The notes beneath the pieces were generated by a model. That model ran no database searches. It was not told the DNA's origin and saw only the letters and a program-made list of their open reading frames with translations. Positions 833 through 60,137 of a stretch of DNA of 64,000 nt are shown here, piece after piece (position 1 is the stretch's first letter; every line of letters begins with the position of its first letter). Origin of the DNA: Minisyncoccota bacterium. Its GTDB lineage: Bacteria > Patescibacteriota > Minisyncoccia > Phycocordibacterales > Phycocordibacteraceae. A program made the position numbers and the translations under genes. The DNA lies in NCBI GenBank assembly GCA_018062445.1, contig JAGOSG010000001.1, forward strand, positions 122,426-186,425, read 5' to 3'.

Positions 833-908
833 GCTGTCAGCTTTCAGGTTCTAGCTTTCAGCTTGTAATTCTAACCTAGAACCTAGCACCTAGCACCTAA
901 AACCTCTA
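833..908. repeat. dispersed short-repeat family, copy R1 (CAGCTTTCAGGTTCTAGCTTTCAGC...CCTAGAACCTAGCACCTAGCACCTAAAACC)
   Basis: Seen directly; tandem units of GCTGAAAGCTG (here as complement) and CCTAG(A/C)ACC. Confidence 0.65.
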
Positions 909-912
909 AGAA

Positions 913-1467
913 CTATGAAGCCAAATCAGCTTCCTTCTTCTCGGTAGCAACTTCGAGTTTCCCATTTACTTCGTCAACGACTTTCTGAACTTCTGCTTTA
1001 AGACGCTTCACCTCATCCTCACTTGATTCATCCTTCTCGATATCGGAAATTGCTTTTGTTCTGAGGGCTCGAAGTTGAATGCGTGCTTCTTCAAGTTTTC
1101 CTCGCACTAACTTAATCAACTGATGTCTGCGCTCTTCGGTAAGCATCGGAAATGATACGCGAATCCCCTTGTCGTCAGAACCTACTGAAACACCTAAATC
1201 TTCTAGTGTTATAGCCTTTTCGATAGCTTTCACTTGCTCTCTATCCCACGGACTTACATATAAGGTGCGCGCATCTTCAATGGTGATATTTGCAACCTGA
1301 TTCAACTTCATGCGAGAGCCATACACTTCAATAAAAACACCGTCCAAGAGTGCTGGTGTTGCCCGTCCCGTACGGAGACTTGATACTTCGGTGAGTAGCC
1401 AATCCACTTTCTCGAGCGCAAGTTTTTTAAATGTGTTCAGATCGTACATATAGAGCAATTGTACCAA
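913..1467 (-). CDS. frr: ribosome recycling factor
   Basis: 184-aa product with the RRF signature (..VSSLRTGRATPALLDGVFIEVYGS.. and a C-terminal KR-rich helix). True start may be MYDLN at about 1449. Confidence 0.85.
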   Translation of the reverse strand: MVQLLYMYDLNTFKKLALEKVDWLLTEVSSLRTGRATPALLDGVFIEVYGSRMKLNQVANITIEDARTLYVSPWDREQVKAIEKAITLEDLGVSVGSDDKGIRVSFPMLTEERRHQLIKLVRGKLEEARIQLRALRTKAISDIEKDESSEDEVKRLKAEVQKVVDEVNGKLEVATEKKEADLAS

Positions 1468-1504
1468 ACTTCCTGAGAGCGCACAGTGTTAGAATATAGA
1501 TAGT

Positions 1505-2650
1505 ATGACAACAGTGAATCACAAGGGGCTTCGCACATGGATTGAAATAGACCGCCGTGCCATAAGGCACAACTACAAACTCTTCCGCTCTCTCATACCC
1601 AAAACCACTAAATTACTCTCGGTTGTAAAATCAAATGCCTACGGACATTCACATATCGATTTCTCAAAAGAAGTGGAAGAGCTCGGCGTTGATTACATTG
1701 CAGTGGATTCTATCGTTGAAGGATTATCGCTCAGAAAAAATGGCATACAATGTCCCATTCTTGTATTGGGTCACACGCTCCATGTGCGCATCAAAGATGC
1801 AGCGGTTCACGATATACGAGTCGCAGTTTCAAGCATCACGCAATTACACCAGCTTCAAAAAGAAACATTTAAACGGCCACTTAAAATTCATATAAAAGTA
1901 GATACGGGGCTACATCGTCAGGGATTTACTCTTGATGATCTTACAGAAGTTCGTAAATTTCTGGAGTGGAATAAAAAAACAAAACGCGTCGTCGTTGAAG
2001 GTCTCTTTACGCACTTTGCACAAGGGAAAGACCCTCTGCATCCTCTGTACACCAAAAAACAACTTGGGGAATTTGATACATGGGTGAAAGAATTTCATAT
2101 GCTTGGAGTACATCCAATTCTTCATACTGCTGCAACGGGCCCCACGCTCGTATTTCCTGAATCACATTTTGATATGGTGAGAATTGGCATTGGTCTCTAT
2201 GGCATCTGGCCAGATGAAAAGACAAAAAAATATCTTGAAAAGAAATACACACTCAAACCAATCCTATCTTGGAAAGCAGTCGTCTCTGAAGTAAAAAAAC
2301 TTCCAAAAGGAAGTAAGATTGGCTATGACTCAACGGAAACCTTGAAACGAGCGAGTACCGTTGCTGTATGCCCTATTGGCTACTGGCATGGATTTTCTCG
2401 TGCACTCTCATCGCATGGGTTCGTACTTATAAACGGAAAGCGTGCAAAAGTCTTGGGACGAGTATCTATGGATATGATTTCTGTTGATGTAACTGGAATT
2501 AAAAATGTAAAAGTTGGAAGCATTGCAACCATTATCGGTAAAGATGGCAAAGATGAACTGAAAGCGGAAGACGTTGCAGATTCAATGAACGCATCCACAT
2601 ACGAACTTCTAACCCGCATCAATCCACTCATCAAACGACTCTATATTTAG
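1505..2650 (+). CDS. alr: alanine racemase
   Basis: VVKSNAYGHS PLP-lysine motif, 381 aa, typical two-domain length. Confidence 0.85.
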   Translation: MTTVNHKGLRTWIEIDRRAIRHNYKLFRSLIPKTTKLLSVVKSNAYGHSHIDFSKEVEELGVDYIAVDSIVEGLSLRKNGIQCPILVLGHTLHVRIKDAAVHDIRVAVSSITQLHQLQKETFKRPLKIHIKVDTGLHRQGFTLDDLTEVRKFLEWNKKTKRVVVEGLFTHFAQGKDPLHPLYTKKQLGEFDTWVKEFHMLGVHPILHTAATGPTLVFPESHFDMVRIGIGLYGIWPDEKTKKYLEKKYTLKPILSWKAVVSEVKKLPKGSKIGYDSTETLKRASTVAVCPIGYWHGFSRALSSHGFVLINGKRAKVLGRVSMDMISVDVTGIKNVKVGSIATIIGKDGKDELKAEDVADSMNASTYELLTRINPLIKRLYI

Positions 2651-2690
2651 AAGTCAGGTTTCTGGTTCCAGCTTTCAGCTTTTGTGCAAA
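2651..2690. repeat. dispersed short-repeat family, copy R2 (AGTCAGGTTTCTGGTTCCAGCTTTCAGCTTTTG)
   Basis: Seen directly, after the alr stop. Confidence 0.6.
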
Positions 2691-2714
2691 CTCCGGAGGT
2701 TACGCAAAGTGATG

Positions 2715-3083
2715 TCATTCAGGATAGACTCCATATCGTCTATCATGCTCTGCACCCGGTCGTAAATACATACCGCTGTCGTAAGGCTCTTCGAACAAAC
2801 CCTCCATAATCCGACCATTCGACCCTATATTTTTGACCCATCCTAGGACAGCTCCAATCAACGCCCCTGTTCCTGCTCCTGGCAGACTACCAACAAGCCA
2901 CCCTAATCCGGCTCCTGCGGCCGCTCCGATTGACGCATCACGTAGAACATCTGAAGCGACTATCGCATGAGATACATCTCTAGCTTCACTGAATATACGC
3001 TCGTGGTCTGCTGTAATTCTTGCTCCCCACGCCTGACGTGCTGGCCACAATCTCTCGTTGCGCTCCCACAATGTTTCGCTCAT
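2715..3083 (-). CDS. hypothetical small protein with glycine-zipper segment (GAAAGAGLGWLVGSLPGAGTGALIGAVLGWV)
   Basis: ORF only; GxxxG-rich hydrophobic stretch. No recognisable family. Confidence 0.4.
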   Translation of the reverse strand: MSETLWERNERLWPARQAWGARITADHERIFSEARDVSHAIVASDVLRDASIGAAAGAGLGWLVGSLPGAGTGALIGAVLGWVKNIGSNGRIMEGLFEEPYDSGMYLRPGAEHDRRYGVYPE

Positions 3084-3225
3084 ACATTTTTGAGATTAAC
3101 TAAGTTAGTAATTTCGACCTCACATATAGTACTTGTCAAGGTATAAAAAAGTTACTGCATCCGTCCAAACTAAAATGTGCCACACTCAGGTGTAGCACAT
3201 TTGGAGAAGTTTGCAGTTTGGTAAC

Positions 3226-3272
3226 TAGAAGCTGAAAGCTGAAAGCTGGAACCTGAAAGCTTAAATTCTTAA
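3226..3272. repeat. dispersed short-repeat family, copy R3 (AGAAGCTGAAAGCTGAAAGCTGGAACCTGAAAGCTTAAATTC)
   Basis: Seen directly, downstream of holB. Confidence 0.65.
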
Positions 3273-3958
3273 ATGCGGGTGCGAGGGAGAGTGACGGCGA
3301 GATGCCCGAGAACGGCTTTGACGGAGGAGCCTTGCTGGCGCATGTATCCTTGTGCATCAAGTAAATCACGGAGTGCTTGCGGTGAAGCTCCTTTTGTATG
3401 CACTTGCTCTAGCAATTCTTTTGCGAAGGCTCTGCCTGGTGCACGATCTTGGGTCTTTGTTATGTAGCTAGTTATTTTCTCCACCATTTTTAAACGCTCC
3501 TCGAAAGTTGCAGATAAAAATTCCCTTGCCTCTTTCTTTGCGTCCTCATCATCAGAAAGCATGTGCGCATCAGACACTGACACCGCAACGGCTCTAGATT
3601 GAAGTGTCGGCAACACATGCCCGAGTGCATCAATTGAAAAAAAGAAAATTGTGTTGCCTGTAGCCTCTTCAACAACCTTGAGAAGCGCATTTTGAGCCTC
3701 GGTCGTTGCACGACTAAATGTAACAATTAAATATTTCCAATCTTTAAGTGGCTTCAGGGAAGCGTAGGAAGAAATTTCACGAGCGTTATCAACGGAAAGC
3801 TCTGTGAAAGAAAGCACGAGCACATCAGGGTTTCCCGCAGTCTTCACCCCTCTAGTTTCCAGCATCGCCAAAACTTCAGAAGCTCCTTTGCCGGCGTTTC
3901 CTACAACAAGGTAGGCATGATGCATTTCTTTCGTATGAGCGAGTTCGGATACTTTCAT
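3269..3958 (-). CDS. holB: DNA polymerase III delta-prime subunit-like clamp-loader protein
   Basis: HAYLVVG...LLKVVEEATGNTIFFF...LPTLQSR matches the HolB/DnaX-family box pattern (ALLKtLEEPp..t.Fil...LpTI.SR). Confidence 0.65.
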   Translation of the reverse strand: MKVSELAHTKEMHHAYLVVGNAGKGASEVLAMLETRGVKTAGNPDVLVLSFTELSVDNAREISSYASLKPLKDWKYLIVTFSRATTEAQNALLKVVEEATGNTIFFFSIDALGHVLPTLQSRAVAVSVSDAHMLSDDEDAKKEAREFLSATFEERLKMVEKITSYITKTQDRAPGRAFAKELLEQVHTKGASPQALRDLLDAQGYMRQQGSSVKAVLGHLAVTLPRTRI

Positions 3959-3980
3959 GTGTGAATACTAGCATTTACAC

Positions 3981-4997: not shown

Positions 4998-5102
4998 GGC
5001 GAATAATTGTAGCAGATGAGGCGTACAAATGAGCACTTGACAAATACATCGATTGGAGTACAGTATTTGTTCAATCGCGCTTAGTGGAATAAACAAAAAA
5101 AT

Positions 5103-6033: not shown

Positions 6034-6043
6034 AGAGAGTTAA

Positions 6044-7318
6044 TTACGATCTCGTAATTTTTAACCCAACGCCTGCAAGGCGTTTTTCAATAGCTTCGTA
6101 TCCCCTGTCCATCAAGTGAGCATTACCAACATGCGATGTGCCGTCAGCAATAGCAGCGGCAAGGATGTATGCCAAACCAGCGCGAATATCAGGCCCATCA
6201 ATATCGCGTGCTTTGAGTGGAGTTTTCCCTTTCACTGTGGCGCGATGTGGATTCACCACGGCAATTTTTGCACCCATACTCACAAGCTCGGTTGTGTAGT
6301 TTAAGCGACCATTAAAAATAGTTTCTACCACAGTACTCTCTCCTTCAGCCTGAGTAAGAGCCACCATCATAGGAGCTTGAGCATCTGTTGGAAAACCTGG
6401 GTATTCGTGCGTGCGTAACTTTACCGAATTGAGAGTTTGAGGTGCTCGGATAGTAATTGAATCTTTTCCTACAGTAAGCATGGCACCCATCATGTGAAGA
6501 ATTTCAAGCACTGCATCTAAATGTTCTGGAATAACACCAGTGACAGTAAGCTCTTCGCCTGCAATTGCACCGAGAGCAAGAAAAGTTGCTGCTTCAATGC
6601 GGTCAGGCACTATGGCAAATGCCGATGTTGGTTGAGTAAGAGTTGAGGGATGAATAATAATGGTTGGAGTACCTGCTCCTTCAATATTTGCACCACATGA
6701 TTTTAAAAATTCAGCGAGAGCAACAATCTCTGGCTCCATCGCACAATTTTTTAAAGTAACCGGAGCTTTTGCCAAAGGTGCTGCCATCATGAATGTCTCT
6801 GTTGCGGTTACTGAAACAATCCTGAAAAATATTTCCCCGCCAGAAATACCGTTTGGTGCTGAGAGCGTGTACGAATCTCCACTTTCCAAATAACTAGCAC
6901 CGAGCTTTTGAAAGCCAGAAATAAAAATATCAATAGGCCTCTCCCCAATCACATCACCCCCAGGATGAGGGAATGTGACGCTTCCTAGGCGTGCGAGCAA
7001 GGGCCCAATGAGCACAATCGAAGCACGCATTGATTTTGCGAGTACGGGATCCAAAACACTTCCCGACAAGCCCTTTGCGCTTACTGTAAGCTCACTACCT
7101 TTGTGAGTAACAAACGCACCCAAGCCCTCAAGTATCCGGCCGAGTGAAGTAACATCTGCAATGTTTGGAACATTGGTAAACTTTGACTCCCCTTCAATGA
7201 GAATAGCTGCCGCCATCACCTTTAGAACATTATTTTTTGCACCATACACAGGAATAGAGCCCTTGAGGGTTTTCTTTCCTGCTAGGCCTTCGATGGTGAA
7301 CACATTTTTTGATGTCAT
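6044..7318 (-). CDS. murA: UDP-N-acetylglucosamine 1-carboxyvinyltransferase
   Basis: 424 aa, colinear with MurA/EPSP-synthase fold (MTSKNVFTIEGLAGKKTLKGSIPVYGAKNNVLKVMAAAIL...). Confidence 0.9.
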   Translation of the reverse strand: MTSKNVFTIEGLAGKKTLKGSIPVYGAKNNVLKVMAAAILIEGESKFTNVPNIADVTSLGRILEGLGAFVTHKGSELTVSAKGLSGSVLDPVLAKSMRASIVLIGPLLARLGSVTFPHPGGDVIGERPIDIFISGFQKLGASYLESGDSYTLSAPNGISGGEIFFRIVSVTATETFMMAAPLAKAPVTLKNCAMEPEIVALAEFLKSCGANIEGAGTPTIIIHPSTLTQPTSAFAIVPDRIEAATFLALGAIAGEELTVTGVIPEHLDAVLEILHMMGAMLTVGKDSITIRAPQTLNSVKLRTHEYPGFPTDAQAPMMVALTQAEGESTVVETIFNGRLNYTTELVSMGAKIAVVNPHRATVKGKTPLKARDIDGPDIRAGLAYILAAAIADGTSHVGNAHLMDRGYEAIEKRLAGVGLKITRS

Positions 7319-7339: not shown

Positions 7340-7422
7340 CCTCAGGTTCTAGGGACTAGGTTTTAGGTTATAGCTTTTCTGACCAAAAGCTGGAAGCTGA
7401 CAGCTGAAACCTGTAAGCTAAT
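7340..7422. repeat. dispersed short-repeat family, copy R4 (CCTCAGGTTCTAGGGACTAGGTTTTAGGTTATAGC...AAGCTGGAAGCTGACAGCTGAAACCTGTAAGC)
   Basis: Seen directly, between divergent murA and priA. Confidence 0.65.
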
Positions 7423-7425
7423 ACT

Positions 7426-9357: not shown

Positions 9358-9447
9358 GGAAGCTGCCAGCTGTCAGGTTTCAGCTGTTAGCTTTTTGGAC
9401 TTTGAATTTTAAGCTGGAAGCTATAAGCTAGAAGCTGAAAGCTAATA
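9358..9447. repeat. dispersed short-repeat family, copy R5 (GGAAGCTGCCAGCTGTCAGGTTTCAGCTGTTAGC...AAGCTGGAAGCTATAAGCTAGAAGCTGAAAGC)
   Basis: Seen directly, between priA and def. Confidence 0.65.
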
Positions 9448-34860: not shown

Positions 34861-34866
34861 AATAAA

Positions 34867-34903
34867 TCAGCTTTCAGGTTATAGGTTCCAGGTTCCAGCT
34901 TTT
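34867..34903. repeat. dispersed short-repeat family, copy R6 (CAGCTTTCAGGTTATAGGTTCCAGGTTCCAGCTTTT)
   Basis: Seen directly, upstream of glpX. Confidence 0.6.
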
Positions 34904-40768: not shown

Positions 40769-41674
40769 TCAATTAGACCACCTCGCAAAAATTCCTGCAG
40801 GCAATAGACGTCCACTACTCGACTCTTCAATAGTTAATTCTCCTAGCTCCACACCTCCGCCATTTTTTTCAATAATTGATTCTAGGTTGTGTGCAAACGC
40901 AAGCGATGAATACCCCGCAGCGTATCCGCTCACCAGTATGAATATAGGCTTGTCTGACAGAAGTGCTTTACAGAGTTTCATAAGCGTTAGAAAGTTCTCC
41001 TCGATTTTCCACAACTCATCTTTTGGTCCATGGCCAAAAGCAGGAGGATCCATAATAATCGCGTCGTAAGTATTCTTTCGCTTTGCTTCCCTCTCCACAA
41101 ACTTCATTACATCCTCCGTAACCCAACGAATTGGTTTTTCATTCAAACCAGAAAGTTTTGCATTCGCCTTTGCCCATTCAATCGCTGTTTTTGATGCATC
41201 AACATGTGTAACTTGCGCACCAGCTTTTGCGGCAGCGAGCGTTGCCCCACCTGTGTATGCGAAGAGGTTTAATACTTTAGGTGCCTGGTTCCAGCTGTCA
41301 GCTGTCAGCTTCTGCTGAATCCATTGCCAATTAGGAACCTGCTCTGGGAAAAGACCAGTATGCTTGAAAGAAGTAGGGCGAATAATAAAATTCAACTCAC
41401 CAAGTTCAATGTGCCATTCTTTTGGGAAATCCTTTCCGGTATGCCAATCACCTCCCTTTGTTTTGCGTTCGTACCACGCATCTGCTCGCTTCCACTCCTC
41501 ATCTCCTAGATGCTTCTCCCACAGTGCCTGCGGATCAGGCCGAGCCAGCACTATGTTCCCGTACCTTTCGAGCTTCTCTTCCCGACCAGAGTCAAGAAGT
41601 TCATAATCTTTAGAAGGCTTTGTCGTCAATATGCTGTGTAACATTTCCTCCATGCTACCCCATGAATGCACCAA
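40769..41674 (-). CDS. class I SAM-dependent rRNA methyltransferase (RlmI/YccW-like)
   Basis: VLNLFAYTGGATLAAAKAGA motif I, IIMDPPAF motif IV. Contains the in-frame dispersed repeat at 41283..41315. Confidence 0.7.
   Translation of the reverse strand: MVHSWGSMEEMLHSILTTKPSKDYELLDSGREEKLERYGNIVLARPDPQALWEKHLGDEEWKRADAWYERKTKGGDWHTGKDFPKEWHIELGELNFIIRPTSFKHTGLFPEQVPNWQWIQQKLTADSWNQAPKVLNLFAYTGGATLAAAKAGAQVTHVDASKTAIEWAKANAKLSGLNEKPIRWVTEDVMKFVEREAKRKNTYDAIIMDPPAFGHGPKDELWKIEENFLTLMKLCKALLSDKPIFILVSGYAAGYSSLAFAHNLESIIEKNGGGVELGELTIEESSSGRLLPAGIFARWSN
41283..41315. repeat. dispersed short-repeat family, copy R7, in-frame inside the RlmI-like CDS (encodes ..QQKLTADSWNQAP..)
   Basis: CTGGTTCCAGCTGTCAGCTGTCAGCTTCTGCTG; the ORF stays open through it. 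Confidence 0.6.
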
Positions 41675-44597: not shown

Positions 44598-44921
44598 GTG
44601 GCTAAGAAATTATATTTCGGTGGCTTGTCTTACGACACCACTGATGACAGTTTAAAAGCAGCTTGTGACCAATTTGGCGCCGTAACATCTGCAAAGGTGA
44701 TCATGGACCGCGAAACAGGTCGCTCACGAGGTTTCGGTTTCGTCGAAATGTCTTCGGACGATGAGGCGATGGCAGTTATCTCAGGGCTTGATGGTAAAGA
44801 TGTTGATGGACGCACCGTTCGCGTTTCTGAGGCTCGTCCTCAGGAAGAGGGTGGTGGCAACCGTGGCGGTGGAAACCGTGGCGGAGGTTTTGGTGGCGGA
44901 GACCGCCGAAACAGCTGGTAA
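44598..44921 (+). CDS. RRM-domain RNA-binding protein with glycine/arginine-rich tail (GTG start)
   Basis: RNP-2 LYFGGL and RNP-1 RGFGFVEM; C-terminal GGNRGGG repeats. Confidence 0.75.
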   Translation: MAKKLYFGGLSYDTTDDSLKAACDQFGAVTSAKVIMDRETGRSRGFGFVEMSSDDEAMAVISGLDGKDVDGRTVRVSEARPQEEGGGNRGGGNRGGGFGGGDRRNSW

Positions 44922-49232: not shown

Positions 49233-50009
49233 ATGGATTATTCTTCAAATAGAGCAGTGGAAAAAGAATTTCTTCTCCAAGAAAAATATAACGGCGTAAA
49301 AAATTCAGAATATGAAACTGATGTACTCAGAATCGAGAACGGTGAACCGCTCGCCTATGTGATTGGCTTCGTTCCATTTTTAGATTGCAAGATATTTTTA
49401 GACTCACACCCATTGATTCCTCGTCCAGAAACTGAATATTGGGTAGAGAAAGTTATTGAAAAGCTGAAAGCTGAAAGCTGGCACCTGAAAGCTATCCAAA
49501 AACCGCTTCGGGTTTTGGATTTGTTTGCCGGATCGGGATGCATTGGTGTTGCAGTTTTGAAACATGCTCCAGACACAATGATGGATTTTGGGGAATTAGA
49601 AGAAAGCCACCTTCCTACTATCCAAAAAAATGTGCGCGAAAACGGAATCGATGAAACACGCACGCACATACTACGCACCGATGTTTGGGATGGCATCACT
49701 AATTCATATGACATTGTGTGCGCAAATCCACCATACCTATCAGAAAGTCGCCTTAACTTAATTGAATCCTCAGTCCTCGCCTATGAGCCTAAAAAAGCAC
49801 TGTTTGCTGACGAGAATGGCTTTGCGCTCATACGAAGATTAATTGTTGGAGCAGGGACCCACCTAAACCCTAAAGGACTTATGTATATCGAACATGAACC
49901 TGAACATGCAGAAATGATCCAAAAATGCGCCAAAGAACATGACTTTGGCGCGGAAACCAAACAAGATCAGTATGGTGTGTTGCGATATAGCGTCTTGAGG
50001 AGAGGTTAG
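49233..50009 (+). CDS. prmC: release factor glutamine N5-methyltransferase
   Basis: VLDLFAGSGCIG motif I and VCANPPYL (NPPY) motif IV. Contains the in-frame dispersed repeat at 49458..49496. Confidence 0.8.
   Translation: MDYSSNRAVEKEFLLQEKYNGVKNSEYETDVLRIENGEPLAYVIGFVPFLDCKIFLDSHPLIPRPETEYWVEKVIEKLKAESWHLKAIQKPLRVLDLFAGSGCIGVAVLKHAPDTMMDFGELEESHLPTIQKNVRENGIDETRTHILRTDVWDGITNSYDIVCANPPYLSESRLNLIESSVLAYEPKKALFADENGFALIRRLIVGAGTHLNPKGLMYIEHEPEHAEMIQKCAKEHDFGAETKQDQYGVLRYSVLRRG
49458..49496. repeat. dispersed short-repeat family, copy R8, in-frame inside prmC (encodes ..EKLKAESWHLKAIQ..)
   Basis: GAAAAGCTGAAAGCTGAAAGCTGGCACCTGAAAGCTATC; the ORF stays open through it. Confidence 0.65.
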
Positions 50010-50100
50010 CCACTAGGGTGTAGCCATTAGGGCGGTCAGATAATCAGAATCTTTCCCTAAGCCCTAGTGGCTATTGGCTCGCCCCTAGTGGCTAGCTCAT
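50009..50100. repeat. CCCTAGTGGCTA-type repeat cluster (GCCACTAGGG / TAGCCATTAGGGC inverted against CCCTAGTGGCTA x2)
   Basis: Seen directly, immediately after the prmC stop; a different unit from the GCTGAAAGCTG family. Confidence 0.5.
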
Positions 50101-50333
50101 GGCATAATAGTTCTATGCCTCCAGTAACTACACTGCCTACAGATGTTGGGATGATATTTTGGTTTTTCTTTGCAATTGCTCTGGTAGTAACCGCGTACTT
50201 TGTTTTTACAGAACTCTTCCACTGGCTCCGCTTTGGGTATATGTATCCTCTGGTATGGATTGCCATACCGGTATACCTGATAGGCATTGTTATCCTCATC
50301 GGTGGCATGCTCACAGGTATTGGAGCTCTATAA
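50067..50333 (+). CDS. hypothetical small membrane protein (2 TM)
   Basis: ORF only; hydrophobic. Confidence 0.35.
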   Translation: MAIGSPLVASSWHNSSMPPVTTLPTDVGMIFWFFFAIALVVTAYFVFTELFHWLRFGYMYPLVWIAIPVYLIGIVILIGGMLTGIGAL

Positions 50334-50909: not shown

Positions 50910-52127
50910 ATGACGATTGATCCTTACAAAGGCGTTCGGGATTTTTATCCCGAAGACGAACGAATACAAAAACACATTTTTGGTGCCATGCGCCGTGCAT
51001 CAGAGTCTTTTGGCTATGAAGAGTACAATGCCTCTATTTTGGAGTCGACAGAGCTCTATATGGCAAAAACGAGCGAGGAAATAGTAAATGAACAAACATA
51101 CACATTTACTGATCGTGGCGATCGCTCAGTTACACTGCGCCCCGAAATGACGCCAACCGTTGCGCGTATGGTGGCGAGCCGTAAACGAGAACTTGGCTTC
51201 CCTCTTCGTTGGTACTCCATTCAAAATTTCTTCCGCTACGAGCGACCACAGCGAGGACGCTTGCGTGAGTTTTGGCAGTTAAATGCCGACCTATTTGGTG
51301 TCACAGGAATAGACGCAGATGTGGAAATCATCGCTCTTGCCTATCGCGTCATGATGGAACTCGGTGCATCCGACACTGACTTCATAATAAAAATTGGGAG
51401 CAGATCAGCATTGAACGCCGAACTTGCTCGTCGTGACATCCCTGCAATAAACCACAAAAAAATCGCTGCGCTCATGGACAGGAAAGGAAAAATTCCGCAT
51501 GAGGAATACGAGGATGAGATGAGCGCTCTTGCTGGTGGTTCATTTGATATTCATGAGAGTGAAGATATTGCAGAAACTCGGAGGCGTTTGACAATACTCG
51601 GCATCACCAATACTGAGTTCAATCCTGAAATTGTGCGTGGTTTTCAGTATTACACTGGCATCGTTTTCGAAGTATTCGATACTAATCCTGAAAACAAACG
51701 TTCTATGTTTGGCGGTGGTAGATATGACAACCTTGTAGGCCAGTACGGCTCTGAAGAAGTACCTGCTGTTGGATTTGCTATGGGCGATGTCATTGCAAGA
51801 GATTTCTTAGAAACACACAACCTTATGCCTGCCCTCACTCCCGCAACGCATCTCTATCTTGCACCTCAAAGTGAAAGTGAATCTGAAAATGTTGCGAGTG
51901 TTGCAGATACTCTACGGAAGAGCGGGGTAAATGTTGCCGTTGGCATAAAGCATGAAAAAATAGGTGACCATATAAAAACAGCACTGAAGCTTGCTATACC
52001 CTACTTTGCAGTCTACGGAGAGAAAGAAAAAGAATCTGGCACGCTCACCATCAAAACCCTCGCCACCAGCTCTGAAAAAACACTCCCCCTCCAAGATGTT
52101 GCTGTTTCCCTAAACGCTAAACACTAA
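50910..52127 (+). CDS. hisS: histidine--tRNA ligase
   Basis: GVRDFYPEDERIQKHIFGAMRRASESFGYEEYNASILE motif 1 region; class II core plus C-terminal anticodon-binding domain; 405 aa. Confidence 0.85.
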   Translation: MTIDPYKGVRDFYPEDERIQKHIFGAMRRASESFGYEEYNASILESTELYMAKTSEEIVNEQTYTFTDRGDRSVTLRPEMTPTVARMVASRKRELGFPLRWYSIQNFFRYERPQRGRLREFWQLNADLFGVTGIDADVEIIALAYRVMMELGASDTDFIIKIGSRSALNAELARRDIPAINHKKIAALMDRKGKIPHEEYEDEMSALAGGSFDIHESEDIAETRRRLTILGITNTEFNPEIVRGFQYYTGIVFEVFDTNPENKRSMFGGGRYDNLVGQYGSEEVPAVGFAMGDVIARDFLETHNLMPALTPATHLYLAPQSESESENVASVADTLRKSGVNVAVGIKHEKIGDHIKTALKLAIPYFAVYGEKEKESGTLTIKTLATSSEKTLPLQDVAVSLNAKH

Positions 52128-52146
52128 ACGCTATCCCCTGTTCGCT

Positions 52147-52719
52147 ATGCGCCGAATCACCCTCGACATTGAAACCACAAATGCCGCCATCGGTGGCGCA
52201 TTCGACCCATCAACCATGAACCTCACCGTTGCTTGTATTCATGACACAGAAACGGATTTATTTACTTCCTACGAAGTAGAAGAATTGCCAAAACTCTGGC
52301 CTATTCTAGAGCGAGCGGACTTGCTTATCGGCTATAACTCAGACCATTTTGATATTCCTATTCTCAATAGATATTACGCGGGAGATCTTACAAAAATTAG
52401 AAGTTTGGACCTGCTGGCGGAAATAAAGAATGTACTCGGAAGACGCATCAAACTTGATTCAGTCGCTTCGGGAACCTTGGGTAAAAAGAAAAGCGGTAAC
52501 GGACTTGATGCCATAAAGTGGTGGAACGAAGGCAAGAAAGAAAAAGTAATTAAATACTGTATTGATGATGTCCGTATCACAAAAGATATTTACGAATACG
52601 CTCTCAAAAACGGGAAAGTAACGTATTCGGATTTCGGAAAGAAAAAAGACATCACGCTCGACACTAGTTCTTGGGAATCAAAAAAAGCATCGTCAATCAC
52701 TCACACACTACCTTTCTAA
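52147..52719 (+). CDS. DEDD-family 3-prime-5-prime exonuclease-like protein
   Basis: Exo I-like LDIETT and Exo II-like YNSDHFDIPIL motifs; 190 aa. Confidence 0.55.
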   Translation: MRRITLDIETTNAAIGGAFDPSTMNLTVACIHDTETDLFTSYEVEELPKLWPILERADLLIGYNSDHFDIPILNRYYAGDLTKIRSLDLLAEIKNVLGRRIKLDSVASGTLGKKKSGNGLDAIKWWNEGKKEKVIKYCIDDVRITKDIYEYALKNGKVTYSDFGKKKDITLDTSSWESKKASSITHTLPF

Positions 52720-52720
52720 C

Positions 52721-53952: not shown

Positions 53953-56900
53953 TTAGTGCGCCGTACCACGCAAAATAGCGTTGACGTTCGCAATGGTTAC
54001 TGTGTCTACGTCAAACGATTGGAGGAGTGAGATAATCGATTGTATCTGCCCGTCCGTGAGCGTCTGCACGCCACTACCAGCTGTTTTAGGGGCCATTCCC
54101 TTATTGAGCTCTCTGCGAGTAAGAGAGCCGACATAGCCACTCTGTGGCGTGATGCCGTGACTAGCTTGGTATTTCTTTACCGCGGACTGCGTCAGAGATC
54201 CGAAGTATCCTGTCGGTGCGTTGACAACAAGGAACCCTTCCGCGATAAGAATTTTCTGAAGCTCCGTCACATCATCGCCCTTCGAGCCAAGGGTAAGATT
54301 CTGCGTGAAATTATACGCTTCGGCACCTAAGACCTGTCCTCCTGTAGTACCTCCGACAGCGCCACCAGTACTTGGAACTGCACCACCATTATTCGCCAAA
54401 GCTACTAATGGACCTCCTCCACCACCCCCTCCTCCTCCCGAAGAGGTTGATATCGCAGTCTGCGTGTAGGTAATGAAAGCCGTGAAGTGTTTCGTCCAAA
54501 TGACCAAATCGCTACCGACATCTATCTTACAATCACCACCCGCAACGAGTGCATCGCCTACTGTCTGGCTATCAGCACTACACACAGTAGTTATTTTCGT
54601 AAAGGCACCAGAACGCGACCAACCAGCGAGCTTACCAGCCTGACCAACAAAAACGAGTCGAACTCCCTTGTCGAAGGTCAGTGCCTTATTAACTGCACCA
54701 ACCTCTATTGCCACCTCTGATACACTCGTACCAGAATCTGGGGTGATGGTATATGCCATGGTAGCGGTTGGCGAAAGCAAGACTCCGTCCCATGTGTCGG
54801 GACCTGTAACAACAACACCAGCTGGAATGTTCACATTCACCGTGCCAACACTCGTCGTTGTCGTTGCTACGGTAGTCGCTGAAATGGTTGTCGAAGCCTG
54901 ACCTCCTGATGTGGTAGTCGTGTAGCGCAGTGTTGTCATCGCTGCATCTTTCCACCATGGAGAGAAGGAAATATCACCCAAAAGGTTATCTGTCGTTGGA
55001 CCATTTTCACTTCCCCAATAGTTGCTGGTTGCATTAAACGAACCAGTCATGTCAGATCGTATTTTCAATATAATCTTGTCCGTCGCCATGTTTGTGAACA
55101 CATTGTCGTTCATATTAAGTGTACTCCCGGTGAAATTAGGCTGACCAGCCCACGTTGTTGCGCCGACAGCAGAGTAGTATGAAGTATCCCAACTCTTATT
55201 CCCATCAAATGTATTGTCGGTAATGTTGACTGTCCAATTGCTTAGGAAGCTATCGAAGGTCACACCTGAATTTTCGAATTTATTATTCGTTACTGTTGCT
55301 GTGCGAGTAGCCGTGGCTCCATTGTTGTTAAAGTAGACACCAGAACCATACTTACTGATGTCATTATGAAGGCTACCATCAGGGTCCGTGTAGTCTGCTG
55401 CTGTAGGAAGTATGCTCAAAGGAATGGGCATGAAGCGATTGTATTGAGCGATGAAATTGTTGCCGAGTACTTCAATACCCTTATTCGGAGAGAGTTTGTT
55501 CATAATACCAAGACCCTGAATCGTCACATTATCTGAGAAGACAGTGATCAGGTTCTGAGTCGCCCAAGCCCCGTTTGCGGTCTCCTGCGTACTGTAGATG
55601 TTAGCAACTGTATCTACTGCGTTCGTAATAGGCTGCCCGCTTGCGTTCAAGCCTTGCAAGGTAATGTTATTTTTCGTGATTGCTAAATACCAACCAGTTT
55701 GTCCAGAAACGGATGTTGCATCATCTTTAATCAGATTGTAATCACCTGGTAGGATATTGACCGTACCACCCTCAACGATGCGCGCTATTCCCTCTGCTAT
55801 TGTTTTCTTTGGACTACGCGCAGTTCCGTCACCACTCGTGGAAACACTCCCGTCAATATAGACGATGGAGAGTACTGCAGGGGAACTTCTTTGATCCTCA
55901 ATAAATGCATTATTATTAGCGGCACTCATCGACAGAATGTTTGCATAAGCAGTAGTGGGAGCCATGGAGAGTATGGCGATGTCGTAAACGTTGGCTTGTG
56001 CGCCGAAGCCCCATGTATTGCCCGTCATCGTTATATCACCTCCCTCAAGCACCCAACCCTTCGTGCCATAGACGAAGTTGTTAGAAATGGTCCCCGTGGT
56101 AGGGCCCGTCAGATAGCCAGGTTGGCGCAAAGCATAAATAGTGTTTCCATCAATTTGGATGCCTGTAAGACCTCCAGTAAACACCATGGCGCGACTAACA
56201 TCGCCGTCGCCGATAACAAATTGTCCATGTATTGAGCTATTTTTTATCGATGTGTTACTGGCGCCGATATAGAGAAGATTTTGTAAGCCAGTTTTGTCGG
56301 TTTTTACAAGCTCAATATTCTGCAAAGTAAAACCACTAGCAAGAATCTTAAAGAAGTTTTCACCAACAGTGATATCACCTTGGATAAAAGTAGAACCAAC
56401 TCCTGCACCGGTGATGGTGAGATCAGTTTTAGTGATGTCTATCTTGCTGGTGAGTGTATAAGTACCTGTCGCTACAGTAATCGTGCCACCCGACGGAACC
56501 GCATCAACAGCAGCTTGAATGGTCGCAAACGGATGGGTCACAGAACCGTCATTTGAATCGTTACCACCTGGTGCGACATAGACACTTGAGAGAACAACAT
56601 GAACGATGTCGCCCGTACTACCGCTCGCAGCATTTACCCATGTGCCGTTTGCCCCTCCATCGTATGTCCAGCTCCAGTCACCTTCAGGTGCCGTAGAGTA
56701 ATCATAGGAACCTCCAGGAAAGTAGTTTTGGACCCAGAGAGAAGTCATTGAGCAAGAAATAGAATTGCAATCTTGTGCTGGGGCCGTGCCCGTTGTTCCC
56801 CAGACTCCTGCATCCCCGAAAGTACCAGTCAACACCCCGCGTGTGCCACCAGTCATAGTGCCAGTAACTATTTCAGGCAATGCTATGCCACTTTGTGGGC

Positions 56901-57225
56901 TTTTGCCGTTCGCACCACCGAATGTCGTGAATGTGCCGACATCGTCCGCCTGTGCACAATAAATGCCACTCTCCTCCCATATCTGGATATGCCTCGTGAA
57001 ATTGTCGAGAGCCCAATCACCAAAAAAACCTGAGTCCGGGTCGTTAGCAATTTGCTGAGTCACGTCTACGAGAAGTGACGCACCGACACCGCTAGTACAA
57101 GATGTCGCCGCATGCGCAACCGGTATGGAAACAAAAAACACTCCGGCAAAAAGCATGAGTAGTCCAATTACGGCAACCGAAACAAAGTTCTTTCTAATAA
57201 GATGAGTGGAAAGTGAAGAATACAT
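53953..57225 (-). CDS. giant (1090 aa) secreted cell-surface protein: right-handed beta-helix repeats, Gly-rich linker, C-terminal peptidoglycan-binding domain
   Basis: N-terminal signal/anchor; many NNTI/GTNN pectate-lyase-like beta-helix turns; GGGGGGGGG linker; C-terminus LTLGSKGDDVTELQKILIAEGFL...YFGSLTQSAVKKYQASHGI resembles PG_binding_1. Confidence 0.7.
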   Translation of the reverse strand: MYSSLSTHLIRKNFVSVAVIGLLMLFAGVFFVSIPVAHAATSCTSGVGASLLVDVTQQIANDPDSGFFGDWALDNFTRHIQIWEESGIYCAQADDVGTFTTFGGANGKSPQSGIALPEIVTGTMTGGTRGVLTGTFGDAGVWGTTGTAPAQDCNSISCSMTSLWVQNYFPGGSYDYSTAPEGDWSWTYDGGANGTWVNAASGSTGDIVHVVLSSVYVAPGGNDSNDGSVTHPFATIQAAVDAVPSGGTITVATGTYTLTSKIDITKTDLTITGAGVGSTFIQGDITVGENFFKILASGFTLQNIELVKTDKTGLQNLLYIGASNTSIKNSSIHGQFVIGDGDVSRAMVFTGGLTGIQIDGNTIYALRQPGYLTGPTTGTISNNFVYGTKGWVLEGGDITMTGNTWGFGAQANVYDIAILSMAPTTAYANILSMSAANNNAFIEDQRSSPAVLSIVYIDGSVSTSGDGTARSPKKTIAEGIARIVEGGTVNILPGDYNLIKDDATSVSGQTGWYLAITKNNITLQGLNASGQPITNAVDTVANIYSTQETANGAWATQNLITVFSDNVTIQGLGIMNKLSPNKGIEVLGNNFIAQYNRFMPIPLSILPTAADYTDPDGSLHNDISKYGSGVYFNNNGATATRTATVTNNKFENSGVTFDSFLSNWTVNITDNTFDGNKSWDTSYYSAVGATTWAGQPNFTGSTLNMNDNVFTNMATDKIILKIRSDMTGSFNATSNYWGSENGPTTDNLLGDISFSPWWKDAAMTTLRYTTTTSGGQASTTISATTVATTTTSVGTVNVNIPAGVVVTGPDTWDGVLLSPTATMAYTITPDSGTSVSEVAIEVGAVNKALTFDKGVRLVFVGQAGKLAGWSRSGAFTKITTVCSADSQTVGDALVAGGDCKIDVGSDLVIWTKHFTAFITYTQTAISTSSGGGGGGGGGPLVALANNGGAVPSTGGAVGGTTGGQVLGAEAYNFTQNLTLGSKGDDVTELQKILIAEGFLVVNAPTGYFGSLTQSAVKKYQASHGITPQSGYVGSLTRRELNKGMAPKTAGSGVQTLTDGQIQSIISLLQSFDVDTVTIANVNAILRGTAH

Positions 57226-57573
57226 ATAAATAAAACGATACTAAGTCTTAATAAATAGTCAGCAATAAGGGGATAGAATAACCCTATTTGGAGTATGGGC
57301 GTGTATTCTCCGTGGGTCAAGGAAGAATAAGCCATTTGAGAAAATGCTTTCTGAGCCCTACCACCTAGAAAAGATAGCCTCACGGCCGAATGTCCTTTAG
57401 ACCAGAAAAACCGAACAAATCAAGCTTCAGGAAGCGCAAGGGACAGGTATTCCGCCTGAAGGACCATCAAGGTCCTTTAAATATACAAAAACAATACAAA
57501 ACAAAAATGTATCTTGTGTCAAGATGTCATTTGACACAAATTGAGGAAAAAAACGATATACAATTAGATTCTA

Positions 57574-58410
57574 ATGAAACAAATTCTGTTTGCGATTCTT
57601 CTCCTTGTTATGTGCGGATGCGTCGCCGAAACAGCATTCGCAGAAAATTCTATTCCAGCGGGTTTTTCTCCAAGCTCTCTTTGGCTTTCAAAAGCATCAG
57701 TGACCGCAGGTGACACAGTTCACATCTTAACGACAGTTTATAACAGCACATCTAAAAAAGTCGCGGGAGATGTAATATTTTTGGTGGATGATGTAGATGT
57801 GGGTACCGCGCACTTTGAACTTCCTGCTGGAGTAGCAGAGGTGGTCTCCGTGGAGTGGAGAGCGAAAACAGGAAACCATGTATTCAGAGCACGCATCGAA
57901 AATGGAACTGACGCAAACTTAAAACAAACGGTATCATTGTCGAGCACCGAAACTGGGGGAATAACATTCACTGTTGTTGCGGCGCCCCCACCACCTGTAG
58001 CCATTCAAGCCTTTAATAGCGCCACAAAAGCAATAACTGACGCCGCATCAAGTAGCGCCCCCGTTATTTCTTCAGTCCTCGGAGCAGTCTTCAATGAGAC
58101 GGAAAATCTAAGAAAGGGGGCTGTTGCATCGCTTGAAAACGCTCTAGAAAATGAAGAAACTCCATCACAAGAAGCCGAACAAAAAAACTTAGTCCTAGGA
58201 GCCGAAACATATCGTGCACCAAATAATGCAAATACTCTAACTGCGTCAATAAGCACAGCGCCAACCTCATCAGGATTTATGCGCGTTCTTCAAACCATTC
58301 TTCTCTTTTTAGTGAGTTATCAATGGGTTTTCTATCCACTCTTGATTTTGCTTCTCCTCGCAATTTTATATGTCATAGGGAAAGGACTATCCAGAAAAAA
58401 ACACACCTAA
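57574..58410 (+). CDS. hypothetical secreted protein with C-terminal membrane anchor
   Basis: Signal peptide MKQILFAILLLVMCGCVAETAFA; C-terminal TM plus KKH. Confidence 0.45.
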   Translation: MKQILFAILLLVMCGCVAETAFAENSIPAGFSPSSLWLSKASVTAGDTVHILTTVYNSTSKKVAGDVIFLVDDVDVGTAHFELPAGVAEVVSVEWRAKTGNHVFRARIENGTDANLKQTVSLSSTETGGITFTVVAAPPPPVAIQAFNSATKAITDAASSSAPVISSVLGAVFNETENLRKGAVASLENALENEETPSQEAEQKNLVLGAETYRAPNNANTLTASISTAPTSSGFMRVLQTILLFLVSYQWVFYPLLILLLLAILYVIGKGLSRKKHT

Positions 58411-58481
58411 AAATACTAGCTTCTAGGCGACGCTTCCGTCGGATCCGAAGGGATCATAGAGGTTCTAGGTGTTCGCTTTAA

Positions 58482-58522
58482 TTTCTGAAAGCTAGAAGCT
58501 AGCCCCTAGCACCTAAAACCTT
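58482..58522. repeat. dispersed short-repeat family, copy R10 (TCTGAAAGCTAGAAGCTAGCCCCTAGCACCTAAAACC)
   Basis: Seen directly, between convergent genes. Confidence 0.6.
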
Positions 58523-58523
58523 C

Positions 58524-59348
58524 CTAAATCGGTGCAAGAAACATCAATATCGTAACTGCAACGAGTACTCGGTACACTGCAAACACATACAGCGGATGCG
58601 TTCTGAGGAATTTCAAAAGTATATGAATAGCGGCAAGACCACTCAAAAACGCAACAAGACTTCCAATGACGAGCGGAGCACCGATAGCATCAAACCCACC
58701 CACTCCGGCAAGCTCCAATAATTTTCTAGAACCCGCACCAAGAATAATAGGCACCGAAAGAAGAAAACCGAATCGTGCAGATGCCTCGCGAGATAATCCA
58801 AGAAACAAACCACCTGAAATAGTCATACCTGAACGACTCATGCCAGGGACAAGAGCCAGTGCTTGAAAAAGACCGATGAGTATTGCTTTCCAAAAACCCA
58901 CCGCCTCCATACCTGTCTGTGCTCCGTAGCGCTTTGAAACATATTCAGCCAAAAGAAAAACTACCGACCCTACGATGAGCGCGTACGCAACAAGGTGTGT
59001 GTTTCGAAACACCGTGTCCATGGTGCTTTCCAAAAAAAGCCCAAAAAATACTGCGGGCACCGTTCCCACAATAAGCGCTAACAAAAGTCGTCCATCCTCC
59101 ACTCTGACAGGTTTTCCTATCACCTTCTTAACTGCGGTATGTGCCAACGTAAGTAAATCTTTGGAAAAATACACAACGACTGCCAGAATAGTACCCAACT
59201 GCAAGACCGAATCAACAGCGAGACTATTTACTCCCGTAGCACCAAGGAGTTCGCGAGCGATTATAAGATGCCCTGAGGAAGAAATAGGGAGAAACTCAGT
59301 TATGCCTTCAACGAGGCCTAAAATACTAAAAATCACCCAGTCGTACAT
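58524..59348 (-). CDS. uppP: undecaprenyl-diphosphatase
   Basis: GLVEGITEFLPISSSGHLII signature; 8 TM, 274 aa. Confidence 0.85.
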   Translation of the reverse strand: MYDWVIFSILGLVEGITEFLPISSSGHLIIARELLGATGVNSLAVDSVLQLGTILAVVVYFSKDLLTLAHTAVKKVIGKPVRVEDGRLLLALIVGTVPAVFFGLFLESTMDTVFRNTHLVAYALIVGSVVFLLAEYVSKRYGAQTGMEAVGFWKAILIGLFQALALVPGMSRSGMTISGGLFLGLSREASARFGFLLSVPIILGAGSRKLLELAGVGGFDAIGAPLVIGSLVAFLSGLAAIHILLKFLRTHPLYVFAVYRVLVAVTILMFLAPI

Positions 59349-59396
59349 GATATTCTGTATGATATCCTATAATTTAATACTAACTAGAGAACCTCT

Positions 59397-60092
59397 ATGG
59401 AACAAAAACAAAATCTTTCTATCCCCATTGCTATCGTACTTGCTGGAGCCTTAATTGGTGGCGCACTCTTTTTTATTGGTCGCACTGACGCACCAACCAC
59501 AAACACGAATACAAACACACCCTCCGTTGCACAAAAAGATATTCCAGGCGTAACTTCCGCAGATCACATCATTGGTAGCATCGATGCACCAATAGTTATT
59601 GTTGAATACACCGACCTTGAGTGTCCATTTTGTAAACAGTTTGACGGCACCATGAAGCAAGTGGTCAAAGCATATGGCGGTAAGGTTGCATGGGTCGTCC
59701 GCAACTTCCCTCTTCAACAGCTCCACCCTAATGCACCAAAAATTGCTCTCGGAGCGGAGTGTGCGGCGGCGCTTGGTGGCAATGAAACATACTTCAAATT
59801 CCTTGATTCTGTATTCACTCAAGCACCAATCAATACTTTCTTCGATATTACAAAACTTACTGCAACTGCAGAGGGAGTTGGAGTTGATGCGAAGAAATTT
59901 AATGCCTGTGTTATCGCTGGAACCTATCAAGACAAAATAAGCAAAGAATTCAATGATGCCGTTGCTGCGGGAGGTCAAGGAACTCCCTTCTCGGTAGCCA
60001 TTACAAAGAATGGGAAGCAATACCCTATTCCTGGCTCTCAACCATTGGAACAACTCAAAACAATCATTGATGGAATCTTAGCGGGAAAGTAA
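59397..60092 (+). CDS. DsbA-family thiol:disulfide oxidoreductase
   Basis: N-terminal anchor, thioredoxin CPFC active site (YTDLECPFCKQF). Confidence 0.75.
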   Translation: MEQKQNLSIPIAIVLAGALIGGALFFIGRTDAPTTNTNTNTPSVAQKDIPGVTSADHIIGSIDAPIVIVEYTDLECPFCKQFDGTMKQVVKAYGGKVAWVVRNFPLQQLHPNAPKIALGAECAAALGGNETYFKFLDSVFTQAPINTFFDITKLTATAEGVGVDAKKFNACVIAGTYQDKISKEFNDAVAAGGQGTPFSVAITKNGKQYPIPGSQPLEQLKTIIDGILAGK

Positions 60093-60099
60093 AAAGATA

Positions 60100-60137
60100 G
60101 CTGTCAGGTTCCAGGTGTCAGCTTTCAGCTTTGAATT
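60100..60137. repeat. dispersed short-repeat family, copy R11 (AGCTGTCAGGTTCCAGGTGTCAGCTTTCAGCTTTG)
   Basis: Seen directly, directly followed by a canonical terminator. Confidence 0.6.

Follow-up and report, generated by a model that had tools for sequence, protein, structure and literature searches.

Cyanobacteria, Xanthomonas and Beggiatoaceae were found decades ago to carry dispersed tandem heptanucleotides, and both the function of these repeats and the way in which they spread are still unexplained. Among the long simple-sequence repeats of bacteria, those with heptamer units are over-represented the most according to Mrazek 2007, as that work is cited in PMC4679880 and PMC4692102. In marine Beggiatoaceae and in some Cyanobacteria and Bacteroidetes, TAACTGA repeats occur in sets of 2 to 6 just upstream of start codons, in a setting where ribosome-binding sites are rare; their function is unexplained, and suggestions for it are protein binding or a part in translation (MacGregor 2015, PMC4679880). 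The GGGAATC repeats of Xanthomonas recur in the same intergenic places from one related strain to another, vary extensively in sequence and in some cases are inverted (PMC4692102). Nostoc heptamers cluster near start codons and promoters (bioRxiv 10.1101/2022.06.06.494920), and among the heptamers of Nostoc and Calothrix are GGGGA(T/C)T and, in Calothrix, three heptanucleotides in tandem known as 'STRR' (PMC4692102; bioRxiv 10.1101/2022.06.06.494920). A second class of dispersed repeats, the REPINs, consists of inverted doublets of REP (repetitive extragenic palindromic) sequences that form lineage-specific families (Bertels & Rainey 2011, PMC3116915). Our literature search found no published description of such repeats in Patescibacteria. 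Here we describe a family of short, imperfect heptanucleotide arrays dispersed over a 64-kb stretch of metagenome-assembled genome (MAG) DNA from a member of the Paceibacterota, which belong to the candidate phyla radiation (CPR). This whole stretch is called the window, or W, throughout.

An initial annotation of the window had proposed a dispersed family of near-hexameric repeats. The repeat is present at every one of the loci that it listed; the unit, however, is a heptamer. Tandem Repeats Finder returned a period of 7 at every locus, with consensus units such as AAGCTGA/AGCTTTC, AACCTAG and similar, and a scan of the whole window at lags 4 to 12 gave a signal at lag 7 only. The units are imperfect and stay in register as A-[G/C]-C-T-[G/A]-N-[A/C], and we define the forward strand of an array as the one that reads A-S-C-T-R. 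Over 55 units, position 1 is A in 53, position 2 is G in 33 and C in 22, and C3 and T4 are invariant (55/55), with the proviso that the [G/C]CT core was the criterion by which runs were found, so that only A1 and the variable positions are independent of that selection. The window holds 13 arrays of this main family, 11 of them intergenic (Table 1). Exactly five units (~35 bp) make up 11 of the 13, and the copy numbers that Tandem Repeats Finder gave for full arrays range from 4.1 to 5.3. Nearly all units within one array differ from each other, and the window arrays do not show the near-perfect units and variable copy number expected of slippage. Two other heptamer families in the window, C[GC]CTAAA and CCCTAGT/GGCTAnn, have an S-C-T-R core.

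The density of the arrays exceeds chance, as had been claimed. A 32-nt degenerate pattern (ASCTRNM ×4 + ASCT) matched the window 9 times and none of 100 dinucleotide shuffles, and runs of at least 3 units with a [GC]CT core numbered 21 against 2.7 expected (maximum 7) under a third-order Markov model, confirming a genuine family of dispersed short repeats. Arrays occur in both orientations, and the loci at 833-908, 7340-7422 and 9358-9447, which had each been taken for a single copy, do carry the repeat but resolve into two diverging arrays apiece (828-909, 7340-7423 and 9357-9447). The view that this is not an array of clustered regularly interspaced short palindromic repeats also stands, given that the units are contiguous 7-mers, that a locus holds at most two arrays and that there is no repeat-spacer layout. 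An Rfam scan of the window found no curated family matching the arrays, the only hit at gathering score being a tRNA-Asn. A role as decoys for, or in avoidance of, a restriction site could be ruled out, as AGCT is not avoided outside the arrays (observed/expected 0.94). Other palindromes are under-represented outside the arrays (CCGG, 0.45; ACGT, 0.46; GATC, 0.61; CTAG, 0.68), which may reflect restriction-modification pressure unrelated to the repeats.

The arrays follow a strict rule of orientation. The 3′ end of each intergenic array always points toward the nearest gene border, which lies about 0-22 nt and mostly 2-8 nt away, while the border on the 5′ side is always more distant (24-146 nt); the 3′ border is the nearer one for 13 of 13 window arrays and for almost all arrays in relatives. 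Where the border on the 3′ side is a start codon, its gene has the strand of the array (rseP, murA, a gene of 643 aa, def and glpX); where it is a stop codon, its gene lies on the other strand (frr, alr, a holB-like gene, the 643-aa gene, bacA and a dsbA-like gene). Because the 3′ ends face the nearest gene border, paired arrays always diverge, a (−) array being followed by a (+) array in about 9 independent gaps of the window and its relatives. Such pairs often bracket a real terminator or promoter. Arrays were found in co-directional, convergent and divergent gaps, and the flanking genes have ordinary housekeeping functions (rseP, frr, alr, holB-like, mreB, murA, def, fmt, glpX, prmC, hisS, bacA, dsbA-like, rpoD and dnaG).

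The remaining two main-family arrays lie inside genes. They had been placed N-terminal to motif I of the S-adenosylmethionine (SAM) binding site of two methyltransferases, and we confirmed this position in linkers of PrmC and of an RlmI-like enzyme. Both cassettes are in frame and have the same orientation and the same reading register, encoding KLTADSWNQA in the RlmI-like protein and KLKAESWHLKA in PrmC, in each case 3-8 residues before motif I (VLNLFAYTGG and VLDLFAGSG, respectively). A perfect forward repeat carries TGA in all frames, and the position at which TGA would fall in frame reads TGG in both genes. A peptide pattern that keeps returning, K-L-x-[A/P]-x-[S/T]-x-x-L-x-[A/P], simply results from reading the DNA core in three frames. 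When PrmC is aligned with Escherichia coli HemK, the segment is a 9-aa insertion opposite a gap in HemK; it is found only in orthologues with at least about 70% identity, and more distant PrmC orthologues have no cassette. The PrmC cassette is retained at locus L125 (L-numbered labels denote loci from relatives), replaced at L124 by five heptamers in the opposite orientation (GAGAGGT GCTAGGT..., encoding LGARFQLLGG), and retained at L122 with a 57-bp in-frame insert nested inside. This insert (10258-10314 of L122) encodes PPRGLQFVSNRFALGQIGS, which is also visible in the alignment in PrmC homologues P0003 and P0006; no other DNA copy of it was found in ~1 Mb of related sequence.

The linker of the RlmI-like enzyme is changeable as well. 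The RlmI-like proteins of W, L122 and L124, and likewise those of W, L126 and L127, are ~95% identical, yet their 35-bp cassettes differ, being of the AAGCTGA type in W, (AAGCTGG)×4 in L124 and L127 and of the ACGCTAA type in L122 and L126; the latter type also dominates the intergenic gaps of L122. Across 120 orthologues the linker is hypervariable in length, and among ~62 distinct linkers from 80 metagenomic loci 7 have a period of 7, compared to a null rate of 0.13% (P about 2.5×10−12), with lineage-specific units that include AAACTAC, ACGTTAT/GCGCTTC, AAGAATG/T and AAAAATC. The alignment of orthologues that the initial annotation had called for thus bears out lineage specificity: the segments are absent from the orthologues of other lineages, occupy an apparently tolerant site and are swapped or reversed in close relatives, so that they are not ordinary conserved coding sequence. 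An irregular period-7 stretch (63793-63863), with units ending GCAGA on the − strand, was also seen in the dnaG primase open reading frame (ORF; 62609..63991, −), upstream of the catalytic core domain, where it may represent a third cassette that lies in frame in a linker between domains. A glycine-rich RNA-binding protein with an RNA recognition motif (RRM) is encoded at 44598-44921, with a period-15 repeat (44853-44884) that forms an RGG-like tail. In several relatives, one of them poor in arrays, its gene is conserved beside that of the RlmI-like enzyme; this arrangement, found in array-rich and array-poor relatives alike, is uninformative about the RRM protein as a partner of the arrays.

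Syntenic loci from six related genomes were compared with the window to follow the arrays at orthologous sites. W, L126 and L127 are ~88% identical among themselves at the DNA level, and W shares ~75-78% identity with L125 and L206, with only 44% identity at fourfold-degenerate sites (n = 990 for W versus L206). The PrmC protein is present on contig JAGONU010000060.1 of MAG GCA_017992865.1, and the homologues of PrmC, of MurA and of the RlmI-like protein carry the names Paceibacterota, Patescibacteria, Kaiserbacteria or Parcubacteria; on these grounds a cyanobacterial origin, which the heptamers had at first suggested, was rejected. Orthologous intergenic gaps are occupied by arrays in L122, L124, L125, L206 and L207, with differing sequences. 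In the frr-rseP gap, W and L206 share a near-identical ACCTAG/AGCTGAA pair, identical over 61 of 61 nt, while L207 has a pair of the GTAGAAT/TCTACTT family and L329 lacks the left arm and keeps the other intact. The polarity of the L207 pair is opposite to that of the main families, and for this reason the idea that the arrays are cassettes with stop codons in all frames, true for the main families, was discarded as a general rule. The array upstream of the 643-aa gene is likewise identical between W and L206 (42/42 nt). Three further gaps, downstream of PrmC, between a 278-aa gene and BacA, and between DsbA and a PD-(D/E)XK gene, hold families that differ among W, L122, L124 and L125; in the first and the last of these gaps, W differs both from L122/L124 and from L125. 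In the holB-alr gap of L206, arrays lie on either side of an ancestral terminator hairpin, which L207 and L208 have by itself, and W has the same hairpin plus a whole small gene between its two arrays. At L208, no period-7 array was found in 21 kb of the same gene order, where gaps measure 25-44 bp.

Other sequence differences were noted at these sites. The small gene in the holB-alr gap of W is a Gly-zipper gene (2715-3083, −), and L206 and L329 are without it. L206 and L329 carry a GIY-YIG gene (7627-7902 and 7521-7796, respectively) in the space that separates def from the 643-aa gene, which in W is taken by an array pair. A 31-nt mini-element, ATGATCCCTTCGGATCCGAYGRRGCRTCGCC, unrelated to the heptamers and able to form two small stem-loops, one with a CTTCGG loop, occurs in four copies nested in or beside arrays (window 58427-58457, −; L329 9933-9963; L206 18938-18967; L124 13495-13520). 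It is nested in an array in L329, as in the window, and is absent from the L125 array that is orthologous to the one in the window. A gene for a protein with a peptidoglycan-binding domain (53953-57225, −) codes for 1090 aa in W and for ~644-647 aa in L122, L124 and L125.

The initial annotation had likened the family to REP sequences or miniature inverted-repeat transposable elements (MITEs), and this part of it failed on structure. Compared with dinucleotide shuffles, none of the three main-family pairs folds any better (z −0.37 to −1.34), and single arrays have less structure (z +0.3 to +1.2). The G/C position shows no covariation between arms; in the frr-rseP gap one arm reads AGGT throughout and the other mostly AGCT. 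Together, these results remove a REP- or REPIN-type reading for the main family, and a hairpin or terminator role was rejected on the same z-scores. Nor do the arrays have terminal inverted repeats and a target-site duplication that would make one mobile unit, as in a MITE: each arm comes and goes on its own, and what lies between the two can be an ancestral hairpin or even an entire gene. In folding, an exception is the pair at 58455-58530 (z about −2.9). The different unit (CCCTAGTGGCTA) that had been reported to cluster at 50009-50100 is also real; it lies at 50005-50096 as the inverted CCCTAGT/GGCTAnn pair, and the region 50000-50100 folds into a very stable hairpin (−53.5 kcal/mol, z −6.6). 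This hairpin has its start within the stop codon of PrmC and its end at the extended −10 (TGGCATAAT) that belongs to a conserved downstream gene of 72 aa (50115..50333).

The arrays reside in a genome with little use of Shine-Dalgarno sequences. Among the 67 window ORFs of at least 100 aa, a TAnnnT motif ends 5-9 nt before the start codon in 33, compared to 9 in a control interval 20 nt farther upstream, with a sharp peak at spacers of 6-9, and Shine-Dalgarno-like motifs precede only 9. Since TAnnnT stands before half of the starts and Shine-Dalgarno motifs are few, leaderless mRNAs seem to be the rule in this genome. We considered the array itself as a sigma-70-type promoter (CTGACA as −35, nAAGCT as −10); a single site (7397-7425) fitted, and the total was not above that of shuffles. 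A geometry specific to promoters was ruled out as well, since arrays come as close to stop codons (2-7 nt) as they do to start codons (5-8 nt). Five arrays are situated 2-22 nt upstream of start codons, and an equal number face stop codons.

Table 1. Heptanucleotide arrays and abutting genes in the 64-kb window.
Feature	Coordinates	Strand	Units and position
Main-family array	829..863	-	AGCTGAA AGCTAGA ACCTGAA AGCTGAC AGCTCAT; 3′ end 2 nt before rseP start codon (826)
Main-family array	874..908	+	ACCTAGA ACCTAGC ACCTAGC ACCTAAA ACCTCTA; 3′ end toward frr stop codon; diverges from 829-863 as a pair
frr	913..1467	-	Stop codon faced by array 874..908
Degenerate main-family array	2652..2690	-	AAGCTGA AAGCTGG AACCAGA AACCTGA; 3′ end toward alr stop codon (2650)
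Main-family array	3230..3264	+	AGCTGAA ×2, AGCTGGA, ACCTGAA, AGCTTAA; 3′ end faces stop codon of DNA polymerase III delta′-like gene (3269..3958, -); terminator-like hairpin on inner side
murA, leaderless	6044..7318	-	Preceded by array 7341..7375
Main-family array	7341..7375	-	Ends just upstream of extended −10 (TGTACAAT) of leaderless murA
Main-family array	7388..7422	+	3 nt before start codon (7426) of 643-aa gene; the array identical in L206
Main-family array	9358..9392	-	Begins directly after stop codon of 643-aa gene (9357)
Main-family array	9412..9446	+	4 nt before def start codon (9451); diverging pair with 9358-9392
Single main-family array	34866..34900	-	5 nt before glpX start codon (34860)
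In-frame cassette, RlmI-like methyltransferase	41277..41311	-	AAGCTGA CAGCTGA CAGCTGG AACCAGG CACCTAA; encodes KLTADSWNQAPK
In-frame cassette, PrmC/HemK	49462..49496	+	AGCTGAA AGCTGAA AGCTGGC ACCTGAA AGCTATC; encodes KLKAESWHLKAI
CCCTAGT/GGCTAnn inverted pair	50005..50096		50005-50032 on -, 50055-50096 on +
C[GC]CTAAA-family array	52108..52149	+	CCCTAAA CGCTAAA CACTAAA CGCTATC CCCTGTT CGCTATG; includes both the HisRS stop codon and the next gene's start codon
Left (reverse) array, 278-aa gene-BacA gap	58417..58479	-	Interrupted by 31-nt mini-element (58427-58457)
Main-family array	58490..58524	+	AGCTAGA AGCTAGC CCCTAGC ACCTAAA ACCTTCC; 3′ end touches BacA stop codon
BacA	58524..59348	-	Stop codon touched by array 58490..58524
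Main-family array	60096..60130	-	3 nt after DsbA-like stop codon (60092); canonical bidirectional terminator hairpin beyond it at ~60140-60170

The reading that we favour, tentatively and as a good possibility rather than a probability, is that the arrays are a lineage-specific heptanucleotide repeat family of the Paceibacterota, propagated by recombination and of unproven function. The places that they occupy are permissive ones, namely gaps flush with start and stop codons and, in frame, the inter-domain linkers of a few proteins. Cassettes would be copied into such places and exchanged between them, one array at a time, by a recombination-type process such as insertion or gene conversion, which would explain why the same places are occupied even though the family is swapped, the orientation flipped, an arm lost or repeats missing altogether. 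Judged from the sequences compared, family swaps, arm loss and nested inserts look like traces of DNA whose arrays are copied, swapped and lost one by one. As the length is fixed and the periodic core invariant, the cassettes are probably recognised by a protein, which might be the copying agent or a DNA-binding protein that reads heptads. Most copies would probably be tolerated passengers, and some may have been co-opted as promoter-proximal or 5′-leader sequence in this Shine-Dalgarno-poor, largely leaderless genome. Several observations weigh against propagation by recombination. Array borders showed no target-site duplication, and no footprint of excision was observed. Neither a REP-associated tyrosine transposase (RAYT/Y1) nor any other transposase or recombinase was found among ~40 window ORFs scanned against Pfam, and the precomputed Pfam lists of genes called in related loci, where a locus has such a list, hold no RAYT/Y1 domain. 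Random insertion would predict neither so strict an outward orientation nor so tight an abutment to codons, and the coexistence of several families complicates a model with a single recognising protein. Finally, the high identity of arrays between W and L206 favours function and is suggestive of at least some copies being functional; at frr-rseP, a local recombination tract is a possible source of this identity, given that synonymous identity is also raised in the first 60 codons of rseP (0.74).

That last observation belongs to a different explanation, possible though on the doubtful side, in which the arrays are functional cis-regulatory elements with five binding sites per cassette that control transcription or translation of the abutting gene. 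At the DNA level they could be operators of a ribbon-helix-helix-like regulator or a gene-boundary or roadblock element, and at the RNA level a Shine-Dalgarno-independent 5′ leader, as proposed for TAACTGA. The invariant core, the fixed five units, the strict orientation and the 2-8 nt that separate arrays from the starts of rseP, the 643-aa gene, def and glpX are all consistent with regulation, as is the lack of structure in single arrays. Three of these four genes have no TAnnnT −10 and may need another mode of initiation, and the array upstream of murA, like that of the 72-aa gene, ends exactly at the extended −10, covering about −13 to −48. The conservation over 61 and 42 nt between W and L206 stands against the 44% identity of fourfold sites, and a like proposal exists for TAACTGA and for the Nostoc heptamers (PMC4679880; bioRxiv 10.1101/2022.06.06.494920). 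Against regulation, half of the arrays face the stop codons of convergent genes, where there is no promoter or start, these genes stand without an array in the L208 lineage, one family can take the place of another within a gap and several coexist, and the in-frame copies have no obvious regulatory logic. The scanned window ORFs include no candidate binding protein, the RRM gene is also found in array-poor L132, and the sigma-70-type promoter scan showed no enrichment over shuffles.

Ordinary heptanucleotide microsatellites, born by slippage and homogenised in place without function or mobility, seem to us a rather improbable account. Slippage favours 7-nt units, in keeping with the over-representation of heptamers among long repeats cited above, and units peculiar to single lineages in the RlmI-like linker, some of them near-perfect as in L127, (AAGCTGG)×4, and L170, (AAAAATC)×4, have the look of concerted evolution. 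Scans of genome and viral contigs likewise found the ASCTRNM-type pattern in at least 119 species of many phyla and at least 120 viral contigs among the matches listed; these matches are mostly near-perfect, with 5-23 units, and are ordinary heptanucleotide microsatellites, so that they show the unit type to be widespread and are uninformative about this family. In the window, the units of an array nearly all differ, yet the core and the five-unit length are common to the arrays, and 13 arrays of the same family obey one orientation rule over 64 kb. Repeats of 7 nt are moreover expected to be strongly counter-selected in genes, and slippage cannot replace a whole family between genomes that are 88% identical. 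Hairpin pairs of the REP/REPIN or MITE kind, moved as doublets by a RAYT/IS200-type transposase, would account for the inverted doublets in gaps, with single arrays as possible decayed partners; REPINs are such doublets and form lineage-specific families (PMC3116915), and the pairs at 50000-50100 and 58455-58530 do fold. For the main family this explanation is largely refuted, and very unlikely: besides the folding results given above, its arms come and go independently and flank an older terminator hairpin instead of forming one, the cassette is a tandem repeat and not a palindrome, and no Y1 transposase is encoded among the scanned window ORFs. DNA uptake signal sequences, spread by biased uptake and recombination in a naturally competent CPR bacterium, are an extremely unlikely source. 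CPR bacteria reportedly depend on DNA uptake, the window has a pilin-like gene, and uptake could explain why lineages have dialects of their own, why inverted pairs lie close to the ends of genes and why in-frame copies sit where a protein permits them. Known uptake sequences, however, are single 9-12-bp motifs at about 1 per kb and not 35-bp heptamer arrays, a strict orientation to gene borders is not expected of them, and no direct evidence for uptake was obtained.

A bolder version of the functional idea, which we regard as unlikely, is a gene-boundary system of this Paceibacterota clade, in which five-heptad arrays, read by one protein or by a small co-evolving set, mark the outer edge of start and stop codons in this leaderless, Shine-Dalgarno-poor genome and are renewed by templated conversion. 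The arrays might then act as promoter-proximal operators, as roadblocks or as pads for Shine-Dalgarno-independent initiation. With such a system one could understand how the variable bases and even the family change although core, length, orientation and position stay as they are, and why the two linker cassettes share a register.

Whatever their role, the arrays are of interest on several counts. In an ultra-small, streamlined CPR genome with scarce non-coding DNA each 35-bp cassette is conspicuous, and its regular grammar of five units with an invariant core, facing outward and abutting a codon, is unusual. Many related metagenomic genomes make gains, losses, swaps and flips traceable at orthologous sites, and this traceable turnover together with the regular grammar means that selfish spread, slippage and protein binding can be tested against each other by comparative and population genomics. 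Through the in-frame cassettes, repeats at the DNA level write lineage-specific peptides into conserved translation-related methyltransferases, a practical caveat for gene calling and protein alignments in CPR bacteria.

Of the systems described so far, the TAACTGA repeats come closest: they too are short intergenic runs of heptamers, mostly a few nucleotides from start codons, whose forward orientation carries stops in three frames and which have a few copies within ORFs at peripheral or tolerant positions. They differ in that the Beggiatoaceae repeat is one exact unit found almost only as direct repeats (one is indirect), with no reported copies that face stop codons or form diverging pairs, whereas the window arrays have a degenerate A-S-C-T core, five units, a stop codon in front of half of them and several families, and belong to a CPR phylum. 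With the repeats of Xanthomonas, Nostoc and Calothrix they share the form of intergenic heptamer arrays, over-represented genome-wide and sometimes inverted; those repeats are G-rich and prone to form G-quadruplexes, or else long, near-perfect and of variable length, while the window arrays are short, imperfect, constant in length and not G-rich, with prominent in-frame copies in housekeeping enzymes. The likeness to REP sequences, bacterial interspersed mosaic elements and REPINs lies in short, lineage-specific extragenic repeats that often form inverted doublets, with singles beside doublets and new elements inserting into or next to existing ones. A REP, however, is an imperfect palindrome and a REPIN folds as a hairpin, whereas the arms in the window are tandem heptamers that pair no better than chance and behave independently, with no RAYT among the ~40 scanned window ORFs.

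Some resemblance extends to elements of other kinds. Rickettsia palindromic elements reportedly sit in frame at tolerant sites of conserved proteins (Ogata et al. 2000), as the linker cassettes do, but are palindromes of 100-150 bp. Among the small dispersed repeats of Nostoc, very small elements are said to be nested inside tandem heptamer arrays (Elhai et al. 2008), a layout, and in layout only, like that of the 31-nt and 57-bp inserts. The ribbon-helix-helix regulator omega of pSM19035 binds cooperatively to arrays of 7-bp units, direct and inverted, that overlap promoters. The window arrays resemble these operators in their 7-bp units, their direct and inverted arrangement and their presence at promoters; the omega operators serve a few plasmid promoters under a known repressor, whereas the window arrays are chromosome-wide and also lie at the 3′ ends of genes and within genes. 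In their 7-nt period, their many dispersed copies above chance, their proximity to start codons and their presence in the same gaps of relatives, the window arrays belong to the already known class of dispersed intergenic heptanucleotide repeats; what is new is the phylum, the fixed five-unit imperfect cassette, the outward grammar and the recurrent in-frame cassettes in the linkers of PrmC and the RlmI-like enzyme.

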